The notes below the pieces were generated by a model. It did not search any database, had not been told where the DNA came from, and was given only the letters and a program-made list of their open reading frames with translations. Positions 1,572 to 22,075 of a stretch of DNA of 64,000 nt are shown one piece after another. The position numbers and the translations under genes are program-made. Within the stretch, counting starts at the first letter, position 1, and each line of letters opens with the position of its first letter. The DNA is from a virus. The stretch lies in IMG/VR virus record IMGVR_UViG_3300030098_003955; one strand, given 5' to 3'.

Positions 1572-2792
1572 ATGGACGGTTTAACGCCTATCGAAAACCA
1601 ACGGCGTGATGGTGACTTTGTTCACGCCACACAAACTATGGCTTCCAACGATGGATACCGTAATGTTTCAAAGTCATGGTTTGACAAGACCATTTCTTAT
1701 GACGAGGGATTCGAGTTGCTTGAGAATGATGTCGAGCAGCGCGAGGACTACCTAGTCGAAATGCGTGAGCTTCGGTTTGCCTCCGAGGATGGTAAGTTTG
1801 AAGTTGACTACAATGGCCGGAAGTTCACACCGACCGACCATGCTATCAGCCAAATGGCCGCTAACCTGTTAGACGGTCAAGGCACTGCCTTTATTCGTTA
1901 CCTGTCGAACGATTATGAAAAGGGCAACAAGAACATCACTCGTGATGGTCAGGACGCTGATGTTCTGCGACATATCCTACAGAATGGGAAACGTCGGATT
2001 GACCCGACCAAGAAAATGAAACTGCGGACGTACTCCGATGGTACTCTGCGGGCTTGGTTGTCTGACTCCTATTCTGAGGTTGATAACCGCTGGTATCTTG
2101 AGCAGGTCAAGAATATCATTCCAGTAGGTCGCCTATCTCACTGGCGAGGTGATGCCGATACGATTTGGGGTAACGTCCTCATTTCCGACACTATCCGCGA
2201 GGAGTTCGACTCCGAGTACGGTGGCATGGTATCTGTCTCAAATTGTGAGATTGGTAAACGTGCGTTGGGTTCATTGCCTAGCCTGTTCCGTGCAATCTGT
2301 ATGAATGGTTGTATCTGGGGTCAGGCATATGGCGAGAAAATCAAGGTAGTTCACCGAGGTGAAATCGACCTTGACCAACTCAAACTCAAACTGCGTGACA
2401 ATATTGAGAAGCAGATCAAGTTGATCCCTGACGGTATTGAGCGTATGTTGGGTATTCGCGCTATGGGTACGGATGGTGTTGCGATGAAGAATATCATTGC
2501 CGCCACTGCACAGAAAGAACGTATTGACCGTTCGGGTGCTTCCGCTATCCTTCAGGCTTGGGTTAAGGATGAATCCAAGATTGCTCCGGTTGAGCGTAGC
2601 TTGTTTGATGTTGTGAACAGCGTAACCCGCGCTGGTCAGACATTAACCAACCAACGCTGGGTGGACTTTGACAAATTGGGTGGTCGTATGTTAGAATACA
2701 CCGATGCCCAATGGGATTCTATCAAGACGGTTGCTAGCAACCTGACTGACAAGGATTTGAAGAAAGTCTACTCTAGCCAACTGGTCGCCTAA
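1572..2792 (+). CDS. DUF932-like phage/plasmid protein
   Basis: RAWLSDSY, VSNCEIGKRAL, LFRAICMNG, HRG motifs; AGGAG SD. Confidence 0.6.
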   Translation: MDGLTPIENQRRDGDFVHATQTMASNDGYRNVSKSWFDKTISYDEGFELLENDVEQREDYLVEMRELRFASEDGKFEVDYNGRKFTPTDHAISQMAANLLDGQGTAFIRYLSNDYEKGNKNITRDGQDADVLRHILQNGKRRIDPTKKMKLRTYSDGTLRAWLSDSYSEVDNRWYLEQVKNIIPVGRLSHWRGDADTIWGNVLISDTIREEFDSEYGGMVSVSNCEIGKRALGSLPSLFRAICMNGCIWGQAYGEKIKVVHRGEIDLDQLKLKLRDNIEKQIKLIPDGIERMLGIRAMGTDGVAMKNIIAATAQKERIDRSGASAILQAWVKDESKIAPVERSLFDVVNSVTRAGQTLTNQRWVDFDKLGGRMLEYTDAQWDSIKTVASNLTDKDLKKVYSSQLVA

Positions 2793-2957: not shown

Positions 2958-3104
2958 CATGGAATAAGCCGAATAGGGGTTGACAAAGCGTAAGGTTCGC
3001 GTAGAACGGGCTGCGTATGCTTTGTCTCCGCCAAATCACGCAGCTCCGAGCAGGATGTCAAGTGACCGAGTGAAAGTTTAATGGGGAATTAGCGGCCTAT
3101 TTAC

Positions 3105-3126
3105 TTGACAGGATTTTTATAATGAG
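3105..3126 (+). promoter_or_regulatory. TTGACA-N7-TATA(A/C)TGA motif, copy 1
   Basis: ttgaca ggatttt tataatga; same spacing at 4921, 5334, 22054. Confidence 0.5.
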
Positions 3127-3130
3127 TATA

Positions 3131-4570
3131 CGGGAACACGGTGGAGATGGGTATCAGGGTCTGCTTGGTTCCGGCAGTACACTCTGGGTATCACACGAGT
3201 CGTTGGCCGTATTGTAGAGAATAAGCATGTTCGTCTGGGTTTCATTTAATAACGGCTTATTATGTGTATTGAGGCAGCAGGTCGTATTCGGGTTTCACTA
3301 TCTCGTTGGCTGCGAGTAGGTATAGGTAAGACGGAGCGCCGACTAGCAACGATGTCCGAGTGAGTTAGTGAGTTAGCAAACTGACCTTGGGTAGCATTTA
3401 TAACGTGGCTAATCACTAATTCTTTGTAATAAGCAAGACTTTATGGGCGTCACGCATTTTACGGCTTTTATCTTGCGTTTAAGGCACCGACATGCTGGGT
3501 ATCAGGGGTTCGATGGCCTATTGTGTAAGTTAAGGCAGCGTATTCATGGGTCTCATTTCACATATGGCCTATTATGTACGATTAGGTAATCCGAGCTACT
3601 GGCTAGCATTTGCCGCTAGTGAGTCAGTGAGTTATTAAAATAAAGGCAACAGGGGTCTGGTTATCATTCGAGTCTCTGGCCTGTTATGTATTGGGAGGGC
3701 AGTACAAATCTGGGTAACACCGCATTGATGGCCTTTGGGTATTAGGGACAGGCAAGCTTGGCTCGGGTGTCATCTTTAAGGCGGCCTGTTGTGTATTGGG
3801 AGGGCACGGAAAAGGTGGATAGCATTTAATAAATGGCCTCTCCTATTAAGAGCAATTACAGGACGGATAACAATCTGTAAGTGGCTCTCTTATTGTATGT
3901 AATAAAGACAGCAGTTAAACCCGGTTTACATTCGCAGTCGGCTGTCTTGTTGTATTGGTAGGCAGATGATGTATGGGTATCACATTACGGACGGCCTATG
4001 CTGTATTGTGAGCTGCATTTGTATGCCGGTCTTCATTTGCCAAGTGGCAACTCATTGTATGTAAAGCACATCGTCAAGCAGATCGACGGGTATCATCACC
4101 TCTGAGGACGATGCGCTTATTGTATGTAATAAGCATAGAGTGTCTGGGTAGCAACGACTTGATGGCTCATTAATTGTATGTGATAAGCATAATGATCTGG
4201 GTTCCATACACGATGGCGGCTTATCGTATGTATTAAGCGGGGCACGTTTACATCGGTACACACATGTAGCATGACCCCGCAAGGTTAATGGTAAGCGTTA
4301 AAAACGGTTAGTTGTACTCCAGATTTCAGTGCTTACACCAACCTAAGTTTATTTATTGACCAGCACGTTCTAGTTGGATTTCACTGAATCTACGGCTGGT
4401 TCTTGTTGTTTCGATCAGGCACTTTCCGATGGGTTCCAAATGTGAGCGGCCTATACATCGTTATAAAGCTGGTAAGTACAAAGTGCAATACCCTAAATGA
4501 AGTTTTTTTATATTATCATAAGATGAATCAGAATTCTCTGGGCTTCACTATGATGTGGACTCATCTTATG
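3131..4570 (-). ncRNA. TIGR-like stem-loop guide-RNA array, about 23 dual-spacer units
   Basis: Repeating + strand grammar stem-GCA-N8-10-YGGGTATCA-like-N8-10-YGGC-stem', i.e. - strand GCCR-spacerA-TGATACCCR-spacerB-TGC; each unit is closed by its own variable stem; A-C mismatches on + become G-U pairs on -. Confidence 0.88.
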
Positions 4571-4920: not shown

Positions 4921-4942
4921 TTGACACGCTTTATATACTGAT
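4921..4942 (+). promoter_or_regulatory. TTGACA-N7-TATACTGAT motif, copy 2
   Basis: Intergenic, upstream of ORF 4976. Confidence 0.55.
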
Positions 4943-5333: not shown

Positions 5334-5355
5334 TTGACAAGGTTTGTATACTGAT
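5334..5355 (+). promoter_or_regulatory. TTGACA-N7-TATACTGAT motif, copy 3
   Basis: Intergenic, upstream of glycosylase-like gene. Confidence 0.55.
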
Positions 5356-5409
5356 ATGACGACTGCCATATAAAAATTGAAGCCCAGTACCCCTATGCAG
5401 GAGAATCAG

Positions 5410-5910
5410 TTGAATATCTTTGTTTTAGACAATGACCCGAAAGTCGCAGCACAGTTACATGCGGATAAGCATGTAGTCAAGATGGTATTGGAACTCTATC
5501 AACAGATGGGTTCAGCAATGCGGAGACATGGTGCGACAGATAAAGACATGCCGTTGACGGCCAAAGGCACGCCTCTCAAAGGCGGGTATCATAATCACCC
5601 ATGTACAAGATGGGTGGGTGATACTAGAGCAAACTTTGAATGGGCAGCGGAACACGCTATTGCCCTATGTGAGGAATACACATACAGGTACGGGAAAACA
5701 CATTCCTGTGAAGACGGGATAAGATATATGGCAAGGTGCCATTGGATTATTCCAGAGGGTGAACTAACACCATTTGCTCAGGCTATGCCAGATGAGTGCA
5801 AAATGGAAGATGCCGTGTTTGCCTACCGTAATTACTACAATAAAGGGAAGGCACATCTACACAGTTGGAAGAAAAGACCAGTGCCTTTATGGATATGCAA
5901 TGCCGAATAA
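5410..5910 (+). CDS. pyrimidine-dimer DNA glycosylase / endonuclease V-related protein
   Basis: (M)NIFVLD..AAQ.H.DKHVVKM..E, NHPCTRW, EYTYRYGKTH, FAQAMPD, AYRNYY motifs; AGGAG before TTG 5410. Confidence 0.7.
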   Translation: MNIFVLDNDPKVAAQLHADKHVVKMVLELYQQMGSAMRRHGATDKDMPLTAKGTPLKGGYHNHPCTRWVGDTRANFEWAAEHAIALCEEYTYRYGKTHSCEDGIRYMARCHWIIPEGELTPFAQAMPDECKMEDAVFAYRNYYNKGKAHLHSWKKRPVPLWICNAE

Positions 5911-6525: not shown

Positions 6526-8646
6526 GTGAAGTTACACAACGAAAACAACGACGTAGTACGCTCATCACAGTTTGAGCAATCAGATTTTACCATTGAGTCA
6601 TCCGCTAAGGCATTTCAGATATTGTCCAGTGGCTTGTACTCAGACAAGATTCTGGCAGTCATTCGTGAGTTATCTACAAATGCTTACGATTCACATGTGG
6701 ACATTGCCAATGAGGCTAAGCCATTTGAAGTCCACATGCCCACCAAGTTGGATACAAAGTTTTCAATACGGGACTTTGGCACTGGGCTTTCTCATGACGA
6801 CTGTATGAACTTGTACACCACATACTTTGGTAGTACCAAGACAGATAGCAATGAGGTTGTTGGTTGTCTGGGTCTAGGTAGTAAGTCACCATTCGCATAC
6901 ACAGATGCCTTCAATGTTTCTTCATTCCACAATGGCAAGCTCCGTGTTTACACAGCATACAAGAATGAGGACAATACACCAGCATTTGCATTAATCAGTG
7001 AGTCAGATACTGATGAGCCAAATGGTATGCTTATTACCCTAAACGTAGAGAGTCAGGATGTTGGTGAGTTCAAGGAAAAAGCTGAGAAGGTTTACAAATA
7101 CTTCAAGGTCAAGCCAATATTCAATATCGACATGGACATTGAGCAGGACTCATATGCTGTTGTAGGTAGCTCTTGGGGTGTTCCTACTGTAAACAGAGTT
7201 AATAGGATCTCTCGTAGGAGAGAACCAGTAGCTGTAATGGGTCAGTTGTCCTATCCTATTAATTCAGAGCATTTTGATGGCAAGTACGAAGACATGCTAT
7301 GTTCAGATATAGTCTTGCACTTTGACATCGGTGAGTTAGCTATGGATGCTAGTCGTGAGAAGCTAGAGTACACCAAGCAAACCAAGCAGGCTATTCAGCA
7401 ATCTCTGGATTTCGTGAAAGAAGAATTGCATGAACAGCTAGATACAATGTTTGACCATTGTGATTCTCTATACGAAGCCAGAGTAAAGTTTCATCGTATG
7501 AAGGGTGGCTCTAATTTCTACCATAACTTTGGTATTCAAGATTCAACGCCGAAGTGGAAAGGGCAAGACCTTTTTGAAGATGGGTTCCAGTCGCTAGAAG
7601 TAGTTCAAGGAAGTATGGTGGTAGACCTATTCCGTAAGGACAGATGGGCGCGTGGGATTAGTCGAACCGGAACATCAAGAATAAACTTTGACCCTCAACG
7701 AGATACACAAATTGTATACGATGACCTGAAGCGTGGAGGGGTTGGTAGAACCAAGAACTTCTTTGCTAGCAATGTGCCAGAAGACAGGTATCAAGATTCT
7801 CGTTTTGCGACATATCTATTTCGATCATGTGAGTTACAGGAAGTCATTGATTTTCTAGGATGTAATCCAGAGGATATAATCCTTACTTCGAGCCTACCCA
7901 AAGTGGCATCGGCGAGTGGAAGCTCTGTATCAGGCTCCTCCAGAACGAACACTTGCTACTGGGAAAAGAGCGATTGGGTTGATACCTCTGTAGATATGTC
8001 TCAAGGTGGTTATTACGTTGAGATAAACAGATACGAAGTTTGCAGTGATCGTGGAGGCCAGATGGGTTTTCACAACAATGTCGATAAGTTGTTGGATGCA
8101 CTTAAAGAAGTAGGATTTGAGTTACCAGAAGGACAAAAAGTCTACGGTTTCAAAACTTCTAAACTGAAGCAGAAGAGATTCAACAAGGATGGTAACTGGA
8201 CAAATCTAGTTGACATCATCAAGGATGTTGTCGAGTCATGCGAGTGGTATCAAGAGTCATACGCATTTTCAAAAGCTGTTAGCAACATGGGAGGATATGC
8301 TAATGCCTCTGAGTTTGCAAGCCTGATTAAACTTGCTCAACAATCAGATGTTCCTCAAGATTATCAGAAGTTTGCTGATGAGATACTGACAGCACAACCA
8401 GAGGACAAGATACGAGCCATCAGGGTCTTACAATCATTTGCCAAAAAATGGGCAATGACTTTAGATCACGATGACGATATAGAGCTTTACTTTGAATGGA
8501 TCAAAGACCAGAAAGACTCTTTGATTGAGAAGTACCCACTTCTTGATTGTGTGACATTCCCAAGAGATTTTTGGGAAAAAGAAGAGAGACAGGCAAGGTA
8601 TGATTCCATTGCAGAATACTTACGACTTATAGACAGTAGCAAATAG
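6526..8646 (+). CDS. rIIA: rIIA-like protein (N-terminal GHKL/HSP90-like ATPase)
   Basis: LSSGLYSDK..IRELSTNAYDSH, RDFGTG, STK..SN..GCLGLGSKSPFAY motifs; adjacent rIIB. Confidence 0.85.
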   Translation: MKLHNENNDVVRSSQFEQSDFTIESSAKAFQILSSGLYSDKILAVIRELSTNAYDSHVDIANEAKPFEVHMPTKLDTKFSIRDFGTGLSHDDCMNLYTTYFGSTKTDSNEVVGCLGLGSKSPFAYTDAFNVSSFHNGKLRVYTAYKNEDNTPAFALISESDTDEPNGMLITLNVESQDVGEFKEKAEKVYKYFKVKPIFNIDMDIEQDSYAVVGSSWGVPTVNRVNRISRRREPVAVMGQLSYPINSEHFDGKYEDMLCSDIVLHFDIGELAMDASREKLEYTKQTKQAIQQSLDFVKEELHEQLDTMFDHCDSLYEARVKFHRMKGGSNFYHNFGIQDSTPKWKGQDLFEDGFQSLEVVQGSMVVDLFRKDRWARGISRTGTSRINFDPQRDTQIVYDDLKRGGVGRTKNFFASNVPEDRYQDSRFATYLFRSCELQEVIDFLGCNPEDIILTSSLPKVASASGSSVSGSSRTNTCYWEKSDWVDTSVDMSQGGYYVEINRYEVCSDRGGQMGFHNNVDKLLDALKEVGFELPEGQKVYGFKTSKLKQKRFNKDGNWTNLVDIIKDVVESCEWYQESYAFSKAVSNMGGYANASEFASLIKLAQQSDVPQDYQKFADEILTAQPEDKIRAIRVLQSFAKKWAMTLDHDDDIELYFEWIKDQKDSLIEKYPLLDCVTFPRDFWEKEERQARYDSIAEYLRLIDSSK

Positions 8647-17292: not shown

Positions 17293-17321
17293 ACTTTGGA
17301 TTACACGCAGATCAGGCGTTT
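17282..17321 (-). ncRNA. single TIGR-like unit overlapping the tasR stop codon
   Basis: + strand AAACGCA-gtagactt-TGGATTACA-cgcagatc-AGGCGTTT; 6-bp closing stem. Confidence 0.7.
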
Positions 17322-17348
17322 CAAAACATTTTACAAGGACGTATAACA

Positions 17349-17558
17349 ATGTCAAACCCAAATATTGAATGGGACAGTGGCAAAGAGATGTTTATCGCTT
17401 GGGACGAAGCGTGTATGCCGATTGGCTACTATGACACGAGAGAAGAGGCAGAGCGTGAGTTTGAGGAATACTGCGCTCACCTCTTTCCTCCGTCAGAATA
17501 TCCAGAAATGCACAAGGGAAAATCAGATGTACGGAATGATAGCGATAGGTCTGACTAG
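17349..17558 (+). CDS. hypothetical protein
   Basis: AAGGA SD; WDE...G.YDTREEAE motif. Confidence 0.55.
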   Translation: MSNPNIEWDSGKEMFIAWDEACMPIGYYDTREEAEREFEEYCAHLFPPSEYPEMHKGKSDVRNDSDRSD

Positions 17559-17694
17559 CTTTTTGTACTTAATTGCATGTTGTTCATGCTTAAAGCAGAA
17601 AGACTACCCACACGCATTGATGTGGCTTTCGTACTCCACAGCCAACTTAGGCTTACTTTGGTTTGAATATAATAAGGTGAATGGTACTCAATGA
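17527..17694 (+). CDS. small membrane protein
   Basis: Two hydrophobic segments, W.SY..AN.GL. Confidence 0.55.
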   Translation: MYGMIAIGLTSFLYLIACCSCLKQKDYPHALMWLSYSTANLGLLWFEYNKVNGTQ

Positions 17695-18131
17695 GAGTTG
17701 CGGCAATATCAGGGTTCTTTAACCCACTACACATAGGCCATATAGACTACATATCTTCAGCCAGAAACATCGCAGACTACCTCATTGTAATAGTCAATAG
17801 CGACCGACAGGTTGAGATTAAAGGCTCAGTGCCTTTCATGAACCAAGATGAGCGACTAAAGATAGTAAGCAACATCAAAGGTGTCAGTAGAGCCGTCATC
17901 TCAATAGATGAAGACGGGACTGTATGCGAAACGCTAAGGCAAGAGTTTAAGAGACTTGAAAATGACCCATTCTTTGAAGAGATGGTGTTTTGTAATGGTG
18001 GCGACAGGAAAGAAGGAGGAGTCCCTGAAGACGTGTTGACCAGTGAGCTAGGTATGCGTATGGTTTACAATGTAGGTGGTGGCAAAACACAATCCTCAAG
18101 TTCGCTAATACAAAAGGCCGCAAACAAATGA
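17691..18131 (+). CDS. cytidylyltransferase-like (HIGH) protein
   Basis: SGFFNPLHIGH, NGGDR, GGGKTQSSS. Confidence 0.85.
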   Translation: MRVAAISGFFNPLHIGHIDYISSARNIADYLIVIVNSDRQVEIKGSVPFMNQDERLKIVSNIKGVSRAVISIDEDGTVCETLRQEFKRLENDPFFEEMVFCNGGDRKEGGVPEDVLTSELGMRMVYNVGGGKTQSSSSLIQKAANK

Positions 18132-18650: not shown

Positions 18651-18750
18651 GAAGATGTTAGTCACGATTGGTTGGTTTTCTACAGGAGCTTTGATTGCTA
18701 CAATCTCTTGCTGTCTGTATGAGTTTTTGATCGACGTGCTGGCTGGTTAA

Positions 18751-19059
18751 ATGAATTACACATACAAAGCAAAGTTAGTTCGTTGCGTTGATGGCGACAC
18801 GATGGATGTAGACGTTGATCTAGGGTTTCACTTAACTGCTAGAATCAGATGCAGGCTTCTTGGAGTCAATACTCCAGAACGAGGTAGACCAGACTTTGCA
18901 AGAGCTACACTCATGTTAGAAAATCTATTGCAGTCACAAGCAGACGAAGAAGGATTCTTCGTGATGAGGACAGGCAAGACTGGCAAGTTTGGAAGATGGC
19001 TTGCTGAAGTGAATGGAGTCAATTCAGTTTTGAAAGAACGGTGGCCTTATGAAAATTAA
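18751..19059 (+). CDS. SNase/thermonuclease-like protein
   Basis: RCVDGDT.DV.VDLGF, RLLGVNTPE, GKFGRWL. Confidence 0.8.
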   Translation: MNYTYKAKLVRCVDGDTMDVDVDLGFHLTARIRCRLLGVNTPERGRPDFARATLMLENLLQSQADEEGFFVMRTGKTGKFGRWLAEVNGVNSVLKERWPYEN

Positions 19060-19615: not shown

Positions 19616-19985
19616 TTTTCATGTGTCCGACATGGACTCATACTATTCGCCTAAGAGAATCAGGCCAAGAAGACTAAACTGTCAAAGGACACAAGACTTC
19701 ATGGAGGCGAGGATAAGAGTATTATCCAACCTGTATGCCGAGCTTATGCCTAGCTTCAAGACTGCAAGATATGAGTCTTTAGAAGGTGCGGGAGCTAGAA
19801 AGCAGACCAAAAACATAGATGTTCAAGAAAGCATATCGCCTTTTGATCTAGAATGTTTTGAAGATATAATGCCATCCCTTGAGGATTTTGGATTATTACC
19901 CGAAGAAGACCCGAAGATGACTTTGGAGGAAAGCCTGCGAATGTTATCAGAGGCTCAAAAAGATTACAAAGATTCCGAAGACTGA
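19593..19985 (+). CDS. hypothetical protein
   Basis: ORF track. Confidence 0.55.
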   Translation: MEYYENHDFHVSDMDSYYSPKRIRPRRLNCQRTQDFMEARIRVLSNLYAELMPSFKTARYESLEGAGARKQTKNIDVQESISPFDLECFEDIMPSLEDFGLLPEEDPKMTLEESLRMLSEAQKDYKDSED

Positions 19986-20154
19986 TACAGGAGTAAAAAA
20001 ATGTCTTTGTCAAAAGATGATCTAGCCAAAGGCTACCGTGAGACTGTGGTTCAAAAAATAACTGAAGTCGAGCAACAATTAGAAGCATTGAAACAACATT
20101 TATCCGAGTGCGACGCAGCACTCGAAAGTAACACTAACCAAGAAGAGGTTGAAA

Positions 20155-21121: not shown

Positions 21122-21129
21122 TCTGTAAG

Positions 21130-21162
21130 CAGGATGCCTCGCAAGGGGCATCCTGTTTTTTT
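21130..21162 (+). terminator. intrinsic terminator
   Basis: CAGGATGCCTC-GCAA-GGGGCATCCTG followed by T7. Confidence 0.85.
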
Positions 21163-21380
21163 ATGCCAAAACAAAATGAAGCCCATTAGCGTAGTTGCAT
21201 TCATGTCTTCTTATAATAAAAAAGATCGCAAGAAAAAGAAAAAAGAACTTCTCAGGCGAGAGAAAGCGGCTAGAAAAAGCCGATATACAAAGAGGATGAA
21301 TAGAGAAGAGAAGTTCTACGAAAAAGTACAACACATGAGCAGGCAGAGAGTCACGCCTATCAGAAAAGAGCAGGAAGAAG

Positions 21381-21620
21381 ATGGCTAAATACTATATTGA
21401 AAGCAAAGAAGTTAAGCAGGTTGTAGATTGCGACGATAAGAAAAAGGCCTGCATGAAAGCTATCAACATGACGGTCGAACAGACCGGTAAAAACCCAAAG
21501 ATAGGAATGATTTTCTTTATCAGTGAATATGGTTTTATTTCTGACAGAGAGGGCGAGGATAGGACGATTCACGATAGTGACTATATACTCGCAACCCAGA
21601 GGTTTTTAGGTCAACTGTAA
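21381..21620 (+). CDS. hypothetical protein
   Basis: ORF track. Confidence 0.55.
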   Translation: MAKYYIESKEVKQVVDCDDKKKACMKAINMTVEQTGKNPKIGMIFFISEYGFISDREGEDRTIHDSDYILATQRFLGQL

Positions 21621-21626
21621 TCATTT

Positions 21627-21698
21627 GGCCTGATAGTTAAACGGATATAACAACGGTCTTCTAAACCGTAGTTCGAGGTTCGATTCCTCGTCGGGCTA
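21627..21698 (+). tRNA. tRNA-Arg (TCT)
   Basis: GGCCTGA/TCGGGCT acceptor, ACGGT-CTTCTAA-ACCGT anticodon arm, GTTCGATTC T-loop. Confidence 0.92.
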
Positions 21699-21701
21699 CT
21701 T

Positions 21702-21809
21702 TAAGTTCGTGCTACACTAAAAATGATACCCACTCGAATAGTGCGCGGCTTATGTATATAATGATTACTGCCATACGGAACGTGAAAACCATTAACCTCC
21801 TTGCAGTAA
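21702..21809 (+). ncRNA. two TIGR-like units directly downstream of tRNA-Arg
   Basis: GCTA-cactaaaaa-TGATACCCA-ctcgaatag-TGC and TTACTGCCA-tacggaacg-TGAAAACCA-ttaacctcct-TGCAGTAA, each with a closing stem. Confidence 0.85.
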
Positions 21810-21816
21810 AGTTATC

Positions 21817-22038
21817 ATGAGTTATCAACAAAGTGCCATTGATTATCTTTGGCAAAAAGCTAGATCAGAACAAGCTAAGTCATTAGCTTCGCTCAAACTT
21901 CTTTTGGATCATCCAGCAGGCATCGGAGATCATTCAACAGAAGACTTGTATGCCAACCTAGACGAAGCTCTCAGTAATTTAGCTGATGCGGAAGACAGAC
22001 TGGAGACTCTCAGTAAATACTTCTCTCCAGACACATAA
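21817..22038 (+). CDS. conserved phage protein (P.GIGDH motif)
   Basis: ORF track. Confidence 0.65.
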   Translation: MSYQQSAIDYLWQKARSEQAKSLASLKLLLDHPAGIGDHSTEDLYANLDEALSNLADAEDRLETLSKYFSPDT

Positions 22039-22053
22039 GAGTACTTGTAGCAC

Positions 22054-22075
22054 TTGACACGCTCGTTATACTGAT
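22054..22075 (+). promoter_or_regulatory. TTGACA-N7-TATACTGAT motif, copy 4
   Basis: Intergenic. Confidence 0.55.

Follow-up and report, generated by a model that had tools for sequence, protein, structure and literature searches.

The window, by which we mean the whole 64,000-nt stretch of DNA analysed here, is part of a large lytic marine phage in which every real gene lies on the plus strand, and its genes include rIIA, rIIB, a denV-like gene, SSB, sugar-nucleotide enzymes, and two tRNAs. One of these, a tRNA-Arg, belongs to a short block that follows an intrinsic terminator in the order ORF70-ORF79-tRNA-Arg-unit 1-unit 2-ORF73, and the two units, which share a single 196-nt intergenic gap, are the subject of this analysis. 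The elements of the block are given below, R1 being a covariance model built from the main guide array of the same phage and described in the next section.

21127-21165, plus strand: strong intrinsic terminator (stem of 14 bp and a T-run); the first gene of the tRNA block starts 10 nt further on
21627-21699, plus strand: tRNA-Arg, anticodon UCU (ARAGORN, tct; Rfam RF00005, 65.9 bits)
21699-21701, plus strand: CUU trinucleotide, from the tRNA-Arg discriminator to the base of the unit 1 stem (from sequence)
21702-21752, plus strand: unit 1 (R1, 17.1 bits; fold)
21702-11, plus strand: unit 1, 5' arm
21712-14, plus strand: unit 1, box D variant CUA
21715-23, plus strand: unit 1, spacer A
21724-32, plus strand: unit 1, loop UG-N4-CCA
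21733-41, plus strand: unit 1, spacer B
21742-43, plus strand: unit 1, UG
21744-52, plus strand: unit 1, 3' arm
21753-21764, plus strand: A/U-rich, single-stranded linker of 12 nt, with one variable site across haplotypes (from sequence)
21765-21809, plus strand: unit 2 (R1, 20.8 bits; fold z = -2.0)
21765-70, plus strand: unit 2, 5' arm
21771-73, plus strand: unit 2, CCA
21774-82, plus strand: unit 2, spacer A
21783-91, plus strand: unit 2, loop
21792-801, plus strand: unit 2, spacer B
21802-03, plus strand: unit 2, UG
21804-09, plus strand: unit 2, 3' arm
21817-22038, plus strand: ORF73, 73 aa, starting 8 nt past unit 2 (from the ORF list)

The discriminator of the tRNA-Arg is A21698 and no CCA is encoded after it. 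A first-pass annotation of this DNA had placed two guide units at 21702-21809, the first of them 3 nt behind the discriminator; its letters and coordinates are exact to the base, and the 3 nt are the CUU at 21699-21701. The linker between the units holds a TATAAT hexamer (21757-62) which is invariant in all haplotypes and has no usable -35. When positions 21550-21900 were searched against Rfam at relaxed E-values, the tRNA was matched and no other RNA family was. The ORF73 family is very widespread in marine phages, with 326 cluster representatives, and in other phages (L036-L045) the gene lies between primase and a DNMK-like kinase, with no tRNA; its place behind the tRNA-Arg is thus itself a rearrangement. 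A megablast search of phage GenBank records gave no match, and neither the locus nor TasR was matched in the closest genome (G001).

TasR, the main array, and the two tRNA-linked units

The same phage carries an effector gene of the TIGR-TasR type, a large guide array, and one further unit outside that array:

16321-17292, plus strand: tasR (RuvC and Nop; phmmer against PDB 9mty_A), 4.4 kb upstream of the units
3127-4568, minus strand: main stem-loop TIGR array of at least 22 units (R1 matches of 21-38 bits; covarying stems)
5356-5407, plus strand: third solitary plus-sense unit (R1, 21.4 bits; from sequence)

TasR is a 323-aa Tas protein with an N-terminal RuvC and a Nop-type RNA-binding domain. 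It matches PDB 9mty_A over residues 4-296 (phmmer, E 8e-38) and the TasH chains weakly (E 0.0095), and we take 9mty_A to be TaTasR because the chain has 331 aa, the length of TaTasR (Faure et al. 2025, PMC12045711). The aspartate aligned to the RuvC catalytic D11 is conserved. The protein stops 4 aa past the region aligned to TaTasR, which continues for another 35 aa, so that the C-terminal extension is absent here. Published work places a Y/H self-processing loop in the C-terminal region of Tas, and a TasR without the extension would count for processing by outside enzymes. As a separate observation, the tasR stop codon is overlapped by a weak antisense match to the unit model (17277-17326, minus strand, 13.2 bits, E 1.9); the same match recurs at 1651-1700 (minus strand, 14.8 bits) in L025, a phage with 98% TasR identity, and is too weak to call.

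The main array occupies a 1.4-kb ORF-free stretch at a distance of 11.7 kb from tasR. Each unit reads, on the minus strand, as a stem, CC(A/G), about 9 nt, UG-N4-CC(A/G), about 9 nt, UG, and the closing arm of the stem. The stems differ between units yet stay paired: eight of the nine pairs change on both sides, and none of 500 shuffles reached the observed covariation score. With its dual-repeat-like loops, this stem-loop TIGR array belongs to the “intermediate” type of Faure et al. (2025), and the genome therefore holds a dual-spacer array of at least 22 units. Near it, between the terminator of a DUF932-like gene and the array, lies a hairpin at 3010-3044 with a counterpart in the related phage L001 (5201-5235); the loop of about 21 nt is conserved between the two phages, and the 7-bp stem differs in sequence and is fully compensated. 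This hairpin could be an accessory or leader RNA of the main array.

R1 was built from the 22 main-array units in minus-strand sense, its structure being the closing stem plus the box C/D pair, and was run with filters off over both strands of the whole 64-kb window. Outside the array, matches of at least 17 bits occur at three places and nowhere else: 5356-5407 (plus, 21.4 bits), 21761-21813 (plus, 20.8 bits), and 21702-21753 (plus, 17.1 bits), the next-best background match in the window scoring 14.2 bits. In a further ~280 kb of phage loci, again with filters off, no match of at least 17 bits lies outside TIGR regions and copies of this locus. A stricter scan of the boxes returned 10 of 10 box positions together with a stem in the main array and unit 2 exclusively. 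The earlier claim that both units, as written on the plus strand, fit the reverse complement of the main-array grammar is thus confirmed by an explicit model.

In detail, a tigRNA unit opens with the 5' arm of its stem, followed by a CCA-type box D and a first spacer of about 9 nt; the UG-N4-CCA loop separates this from the second spacer, after which UG leads into the closing of the stem. In unit 2, all four boxes are present (CCA, UG, CCA, UG), the spacers measure 9 and 10 nt, and the stem has 6 bp. Unit 1 has three of four, CUA replacing the first CCA, with two 9-nt spacers and a 9-bp stem that contains one bulge and two G-U pairs; in the fold, its spacers also pair with each other over 4 bp, extending the hairpin. 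Both units have the palindromic closing stem that varies from unit to unit. The U of the CUA box stands at a position that is an invariant C in 22 of 22 array units, a point against reading unit 1 as a working guide. In the phage L004, a bona fide unit of the tasR-adjacent array carries CUA too, and by this comparison the variant appears to be tolerated. As for location, the units neither flank nor lie inside tas; they follow tasR at a distance of 4.4 kb, which is filled by about 13 ORFs.

The third solitary unit differs in setting. It begins right after an exact copy of the motif TTGACA-N7-TATACTGAT (5334-5355), and its 3' arm overlaps the GGAG Shine-Dalgarno sequence of the denV-like gene, for which the TTG at 5410 is the probable start codon. 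The unit would be a guide at the extreme 5' end of an mRNA.

The strand on which such guides are read needs care, since the grammar is nearly its own reverse complement (UG...CCA versus UGG...CA). Counting wobble pairs was tried as a strand argument and set aside, the array stems holding 13 G-U against 17 A-C, which is not decisive; mid-stem wobbles favouring the minus strand are found in four array units only, and a promoter-like motif points into the main array on the plus strand. Moreover, the main array is antisense to all neighbouring genes both here and in the syntenic phages L001 and L017. The relatives in which arrays adjoin tasR are informative in this respect: L004-L006, with TasR 58% identical, have seven units directly upstream of tasR, L051 has an array downstream of it, and L052 has arrays on both sides, all of them co-directional with tasR in the R1 sense. 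Because the arrays of these relatives are co-directional with tasR in the R1 sense, the tRNA-linked units are of plus sense, like the tRNA. The published definitions, according to which loops are A-rich and both edge and loop elements run from UG to CCA (Faure et al. 2025), agree with the plus-strand orientation first proposed, as do the tasR-adjacent arrays. In addition, the full (outer) stem of unit 1 forms on the plus strand only, where the G-U pairs mentioned in the first-pass annotation are found, and a U-G pair that this stem has in the window is replaced by C-G in two other haplotypes.

Haplotypes, relatives, and alternative readings

A pattern scan of metagenome contigs, combined with a look-up of the downstream ORF, recovered the locus from many Tara Oceans and other marine samples; the core pattern of unit 1 was found at four loci in metagenome contigs and was absent from viral contigs. 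The locus exists as four haplotypes, reaching down to about 85% genome identity: that of the window itself, one differing from it at 2 sites, one differing at 7 sites (L026, L027, and L032, whose genomes are 98% identical to the window), and one differing at 4 sites (L028, whose genome is ~83-87% identical over the whole aligned stretch). Nine sites vary within 117 nt, and they are distributed unevenly, with none in the 20 box positions, one in the 37 spacer positions, two in the eight positions of the loop interiors, four in the stems, and two in the linkers; the single variable spacer site sits next to a box. Finding at most one of the nine variable sites in the 57 box and spacer positions has a hypergeometric p of 0.019, which with four haplotypes is a modest test. 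Both spacers of unit 1 are invariant in all four haplotypes, and unit 2 has invariant boxes, a variable loop interior, and a stem that is 5 bp in two haplotypes. By this modest test, the pattern of substitutions shows the boxes and spacers to be under purifying selection.

The two more divergent haplotypes show this in different ways. In L026, at 98% genome identity, seven changes fall in the 117-nt region, of which the 57 box and spacer positions take one; this is a higher rate than the average over the genome of this relative, yet the parts essential to a guide are spared. In L028, the units differ from those of the window at 4 of 117 positions, the tRNA at 2 of 50, and ORF73 by about 7%. 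In this relative of about 85% identity, the unit region is conserved like the tRNA and more than the next ORF.

More distant relatives extend the record of unit 1. Two syntenic phages whose TasR is 59% identical, L001 and L029, both carry a mini-array of three plus-sense units (L001 6379-6676, plus strand) to the right of the minus-strand main array. The middle unit (L001 ~6545-6595, +6554) agrees with the spacers of unit 1 at 16 of 18 positions (8 of 9 in each spacer), with a 1-nt register shift. Among the 448 pairs formed by 28 units of the window and 16 of L001, this pair scores 16 and the next best 12. The counterpart has a 9-bp stem of sequence unrelated to that of unit 1, and the intergenic DNA around it is barely alignable to the window. 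Its loop UG reads UA and its R1 score is 5.7 bits, for which reasons it may be weakened or decaying. For unit 2 and the unit at 5356, the sampled relatives yielded no counterpart.

Unit 1 is therefore not newly acquired, being the sole guide kept by both lineages, with its place and stem changed. The first-pass annotation had suggested that such units are individually mobile or newly acquired. For unit 1 the second suggestion is contradicted, because no other guide in the repertoire is conserved as deeply (16 of 18 spacer positions), and the first holds in an evolutionary sense, the counterpart being found at another locus in L001 and L029.

The coupling to the tRNA has a narrower distribution. 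In L001 and L029, what comes after the orthologous tRNA-Arg is a small, unrelated ORF instead of units, and a search of viral contigs returned ten other phage contigs with the same tRNA-Arg 3' end, none of which has units behind the tRNA. The coupling is absent from L004 as well. A search of viral contigs with TasR as a single protein found no relatives, and one with a TasR alignment found two distant relatives, both with arrays next to tasR and no tRNA. Hence, looking in related phages for tRNA-adjacent units, as had been suggested, gave a divided answer: they are present in the close lineage and missing from relatives at 58-59% TasR identity. As a side observation, L001 carries a cluster of tRNA-Glu, tRNA-Asp, and tRNA-Met, a tmRNA (tag AEHSFAMAA), and tRNA-Arg (17556-17783, 18663-19001, and 19956-20028); phage-borne tmRNA is uncommon.

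These results bear on the alternatives. One is that the units are relics, moved or copied from an array, no longer used by TasR, and kept in an intergenic gap only by the youth of the lineage. The degenerate first box D of unit 1 would fit a relic, if the same CUA did not also occur in a unit of a tasR-adjacent array; so would the L001 counterpart with its broken loop box and 5.7 bits, were it not that the unit 1 spacers have been retained in phages that replaced all others and whose intergenic DNA is otherwise unalignable. The lineage-specific tRNA coupling and the scores of the variant haplotypes of unit 2, just 12.7-16.3 bits, also speak for decay. Against this, boxes and spacers are spared at sites where loop interiors, stems, and linkers vary, most tellingly in L026, where seven changes in 117 nt leave all but one of the 57 box and spacer positions untouched in a genome 98% identical to the window. 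We consider the relic reading unlikely.

A second alternative is that the hairpins act in cis, as 3'-trailer or processing determinants of the tRNA, as control elements in the 5' UTR of ORF73 (possibly with TasR binding the RNA as the regulator), or through a promoter at the linker TATAAT. Unit 2 does end 8 nt before the start codon of ORF73, the solitary unit at 5356-5407 likewise overlaps the Shine-Dalgarno sequence of the next gene, and the mutual pairing of the unit 1 spacers over 4 bp lengthens the hairpin; a hairpin as such, however, needs neither UG and CCA boxes nor 9-nt spacings that fit the array model, and the L001 counterpart keeps its spacers in another context, without the tRNA or ORF73. 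The TATAAT at 21757-62 is invariant in all haplotypes but has neither a -35 nor a TGn, and a transcript starting from it would truncate the 5' arm of unit 2. A role in cis is accordingly still less probable than decay.

A third candidate, considered and rejected, is that the conservation reflects a hydrophobic peptide of 26 aa encoded on the minus strand (21792 down to 21712) and preceded by AGGAGG, the grammar being incidental. The frame is open in all four haplotypes with conservative replacements only (F/V, I/V, A/S). It is antisense to the tRNA operon in a region where every gene is on the plus strand, its Shine-Dalgarno sequence is just 3 nt from the start codon, one haplotype has a GTG start, and a 1-nt indel in L001 shifts the frame into a stop and keeps the RNA grammar; moreover, it leaves unexplained a match to a covariance model from a different locus, and we regard it as very improbable. 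Chance resemblance to the array grammar, to which the modest individual E-values (0.029 and 0.22 for the whole window) might point, is the least credible reading of all, because two tandem same-strand matches fall in one 196-nt gap, ~280 kb of other phage DNA holds nothing comparable outside TIGR regions, and the conservation pattern and the L001 counterpart would be left to coincidence.

Taken together, units 1 and 2 are very likely genuine tigRNA-type units under selection. A more demanding reading, which we favour with less assurance, is that they are two working stem-loop tigRNA genes of the TIGR-TasR system, located outside the main array and behind a tRNA-Arg.

Transcription, processing, and significance of the tRNA-linked guides

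Neither in the interval from the tRNA to the units nor in that from the units to ORF73 was an intrinsic terminator or a sigma-70-type promoter called; the limits of the block are set by the terminator at 21127-21165 on one side and, on the other, by the next promoter-like motif, at 22054. Co-transcription is for these reasons the simplest reading. It is thus likely, from what can be read in the DNA, that the units are co-transcribed with the tRNA-Arg, and ORF73 is probably on the same transcript as unit 2. One point counts against the working-guide reading: no promoter was recognised after the terminator at 21127-21165, and motifs of the types GTGTATAHT and TTGACA-N7-TATACTGAT are absent between this terminator and 22054. 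With a terminator upstream and no recognisable promoter after it, the tRNA block must need read-through or a promoter of an unrecognised type. Elsewhere in the window, the motif TTGACA-N7-TATACT(GAT) occurs at 3105-3126, 4921-4942, 5334-5355, and 22054-22075 on the plus strand, three copies being exact and one having 2 mismatches. All copies are intergenic and plus-strand, one of them points into the minus-sense main array, and the hexamers are too closely spaced for sigma-70.

Transfer RNAs without an encoded CCA are a substrate class of RNase Z/BN, and the CCA-less tRNAs of phage T4 depend on the host RNase BN/Z. Because it has no encoded CCA, the tRNA-Arg of the window needs endonucleolytic or exonucleolytic 3' maturation, and since the intervening 3 nt are CUU, a cut after the discriminator would at the same time give unit 1 its 5' end. 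A stem-base CUU has been described as a processing boundary of stem-loop tigRNAs (Xu et al. 2026, bioRxiv 10.64898/2026.09.09.750476). In the window, CUU lies directly 5' of the unit 1 stem (21699-701), CUUA lies in the 3' arm of unit 1, and no CUU is found at the stem base of unit 2; in the main array, CUU is present in the 3' arm of 10 of 22 units, compared with about 15% expected. The maturation enzyme of stem-loop tigRNAs is an acknowledged gap in the TIGR-Tas literature. It is conceivable, at somewhat less than an even chance, that the 5' end of unit 1 is set by processing of the tRNA 3' end.

The mechanism that we propose would run as follows. The block from ORF70 through ORF79, the tRNA-Arg, unit 1, and unit 2 to ORF73 would be transcribed as one RNA. 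The 3' end of the tRNA would be matured either by RNase Z/BN cutting after the discriminator or by RNase E together with exonucleases, leaving a 5' end 3 nt before the unit 1 stem, at CUU. Host RNases would then cut or trim the A/U-rich linker and the 8-nt tail before ORF73, the units being shielded by their stems and by bound TasR. Finally, the two 9-10-nt spacers of each unit would guide a TasR dimer to a DNA site of 18-19 bp. Regarding such sites, no convincing self-target was found in the window and relatives when contiguous 18-mers with up to 3 mismatches and half-sites on opposite strands with gaps of -3 to 12 nt were searched, and a search of 185,579 species genomes for host targets, as exact 18-mers in one target geometry, returned five scattered matches, which is the level of chance.

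In their composition, these guides resemble described TIGR arrays, which have two spacers of 8-12 nt with box C (UG) and box D (CCA) (Faure et al. 2025, Xu et al. 2026). In particular, they share with the stem-loop and intermediate arrays the variable palindromic closing stem and the conserved 9-nt UG-N4-CCA loop, and with the systems of that type a TasR effector, the absence of the C-terminal processing-loop region, and a location in a phage genome. Their arrangement is different. Described arrays lie upstream of, downstream of, or inside tas, with sub-arrays a few hundred nt apart, whereas in this phage 11.7 kb separates tasR from a main array that runs antisense to all genes, and the gene-sense strand has three dispersed units, one solitary and two forming a pair that starts 3 nt after a tRNA. 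The mini-array of L001 and L029 (L001 6379-6676) is a close parallel, since it belongs to the same TasR clade and likewise has plus-sense units outside a minus-sense main array; it lies next to that array and upstream of an early gene, however, not behind a tRNA, whereas the locus described here is tRNA-fused. A link between tRNAs and TIGR guides is absent from both published accounts (Faure et al. 2025, Xu et al. 2026), and the units would probably be made by riding on the transcription and processing of a tRNA, an arrangement undescribed for TIGR-Tas.

Outside TIGR systems lie the two nearest parallels, both of which had been drawn when the units were first noticed. Plants reportedly have dicistronic tRNA-snoRNA genes processed by RNase Z, as Kruszka and colleagues are said to have described in 2003. 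There, too, a box C/D-type guide of a Nop-domain protein lies directly behind a tRNA, and tRNA 3' processing could release the 5' end of the guide. The plant genes differ in that they encode eukaryotic RNA-methylation guides with K-turns and use the Pol III promoter of the tRNA, whereas the locus in the window is in a bacteriophage, its guides are predicted to serve a DNA-targeting RuvC-Nop protein, and its tRNA lies inside an mRNA operon. These dicistrons are cited by Faure et al. (2025) only as examples of clustered snoRNAs.

The second parallel is synthetic. The engineered polycistronic tRNA-gRNA (PTG) arrays for CRISPR multiplexing reportedly go back to Xie, Minkenberg and Yang in 2015, and in them tRNA processing by RNase P and RNase Z cuts guides from a longer transcript. 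In PTG arrays, tRNAs flank each guide; the arrangement in the phage is natural and has a 5' tRNA only, so that the 3' ends need another RNase.

The maturation of stem-loop tigRNAs is the first open question on which this locus bears, as it offers a natural substrate composed of a CCA-less tRNA, CUU, and two guide units. If the proposed mechanism is true, the locus is a natural tRNA-guide fusion in which host RNases mature stem-loop tigRNAs, and this natural design may serve multiplexed TIGR tools.

Another open question, raised in both TIGR-Tas papers, is where a TasR without a detectable nearby array obtains its guides. The window indicates that guides can be solitary, on either strand, and kilobases away from tas, and that tRNA trailers and 5' UTRs can harbour them. 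The published TIGRFinder survey covered up to 10 kb of flank on each side of tas, and since the main array of this phage lies 11.7 kb from tasR, arrays like it could be scored as missing. Dispersed guides could, if the reading given here is true, explain the TasR genes reported without a detectable array.

Finally, unit 1 points to a conserved target, because it is the sole guide conserved when the other spacers have all been replaced, and it is thereby a rare handle on the natural targets of TIGR systems. We suggest, as a tentative idea in which we place somewhat less trust than in the processing of unit 1 at the tRNA end, that the phage keeps an ancient core guide, unit 1, apart from a fast-turning main array, and that tigRNA units are self-contained movable cassettes, of which unit 1 may have become wired to a tRNA and would be made constitutively by the tRNA-processing enzymes of the host.
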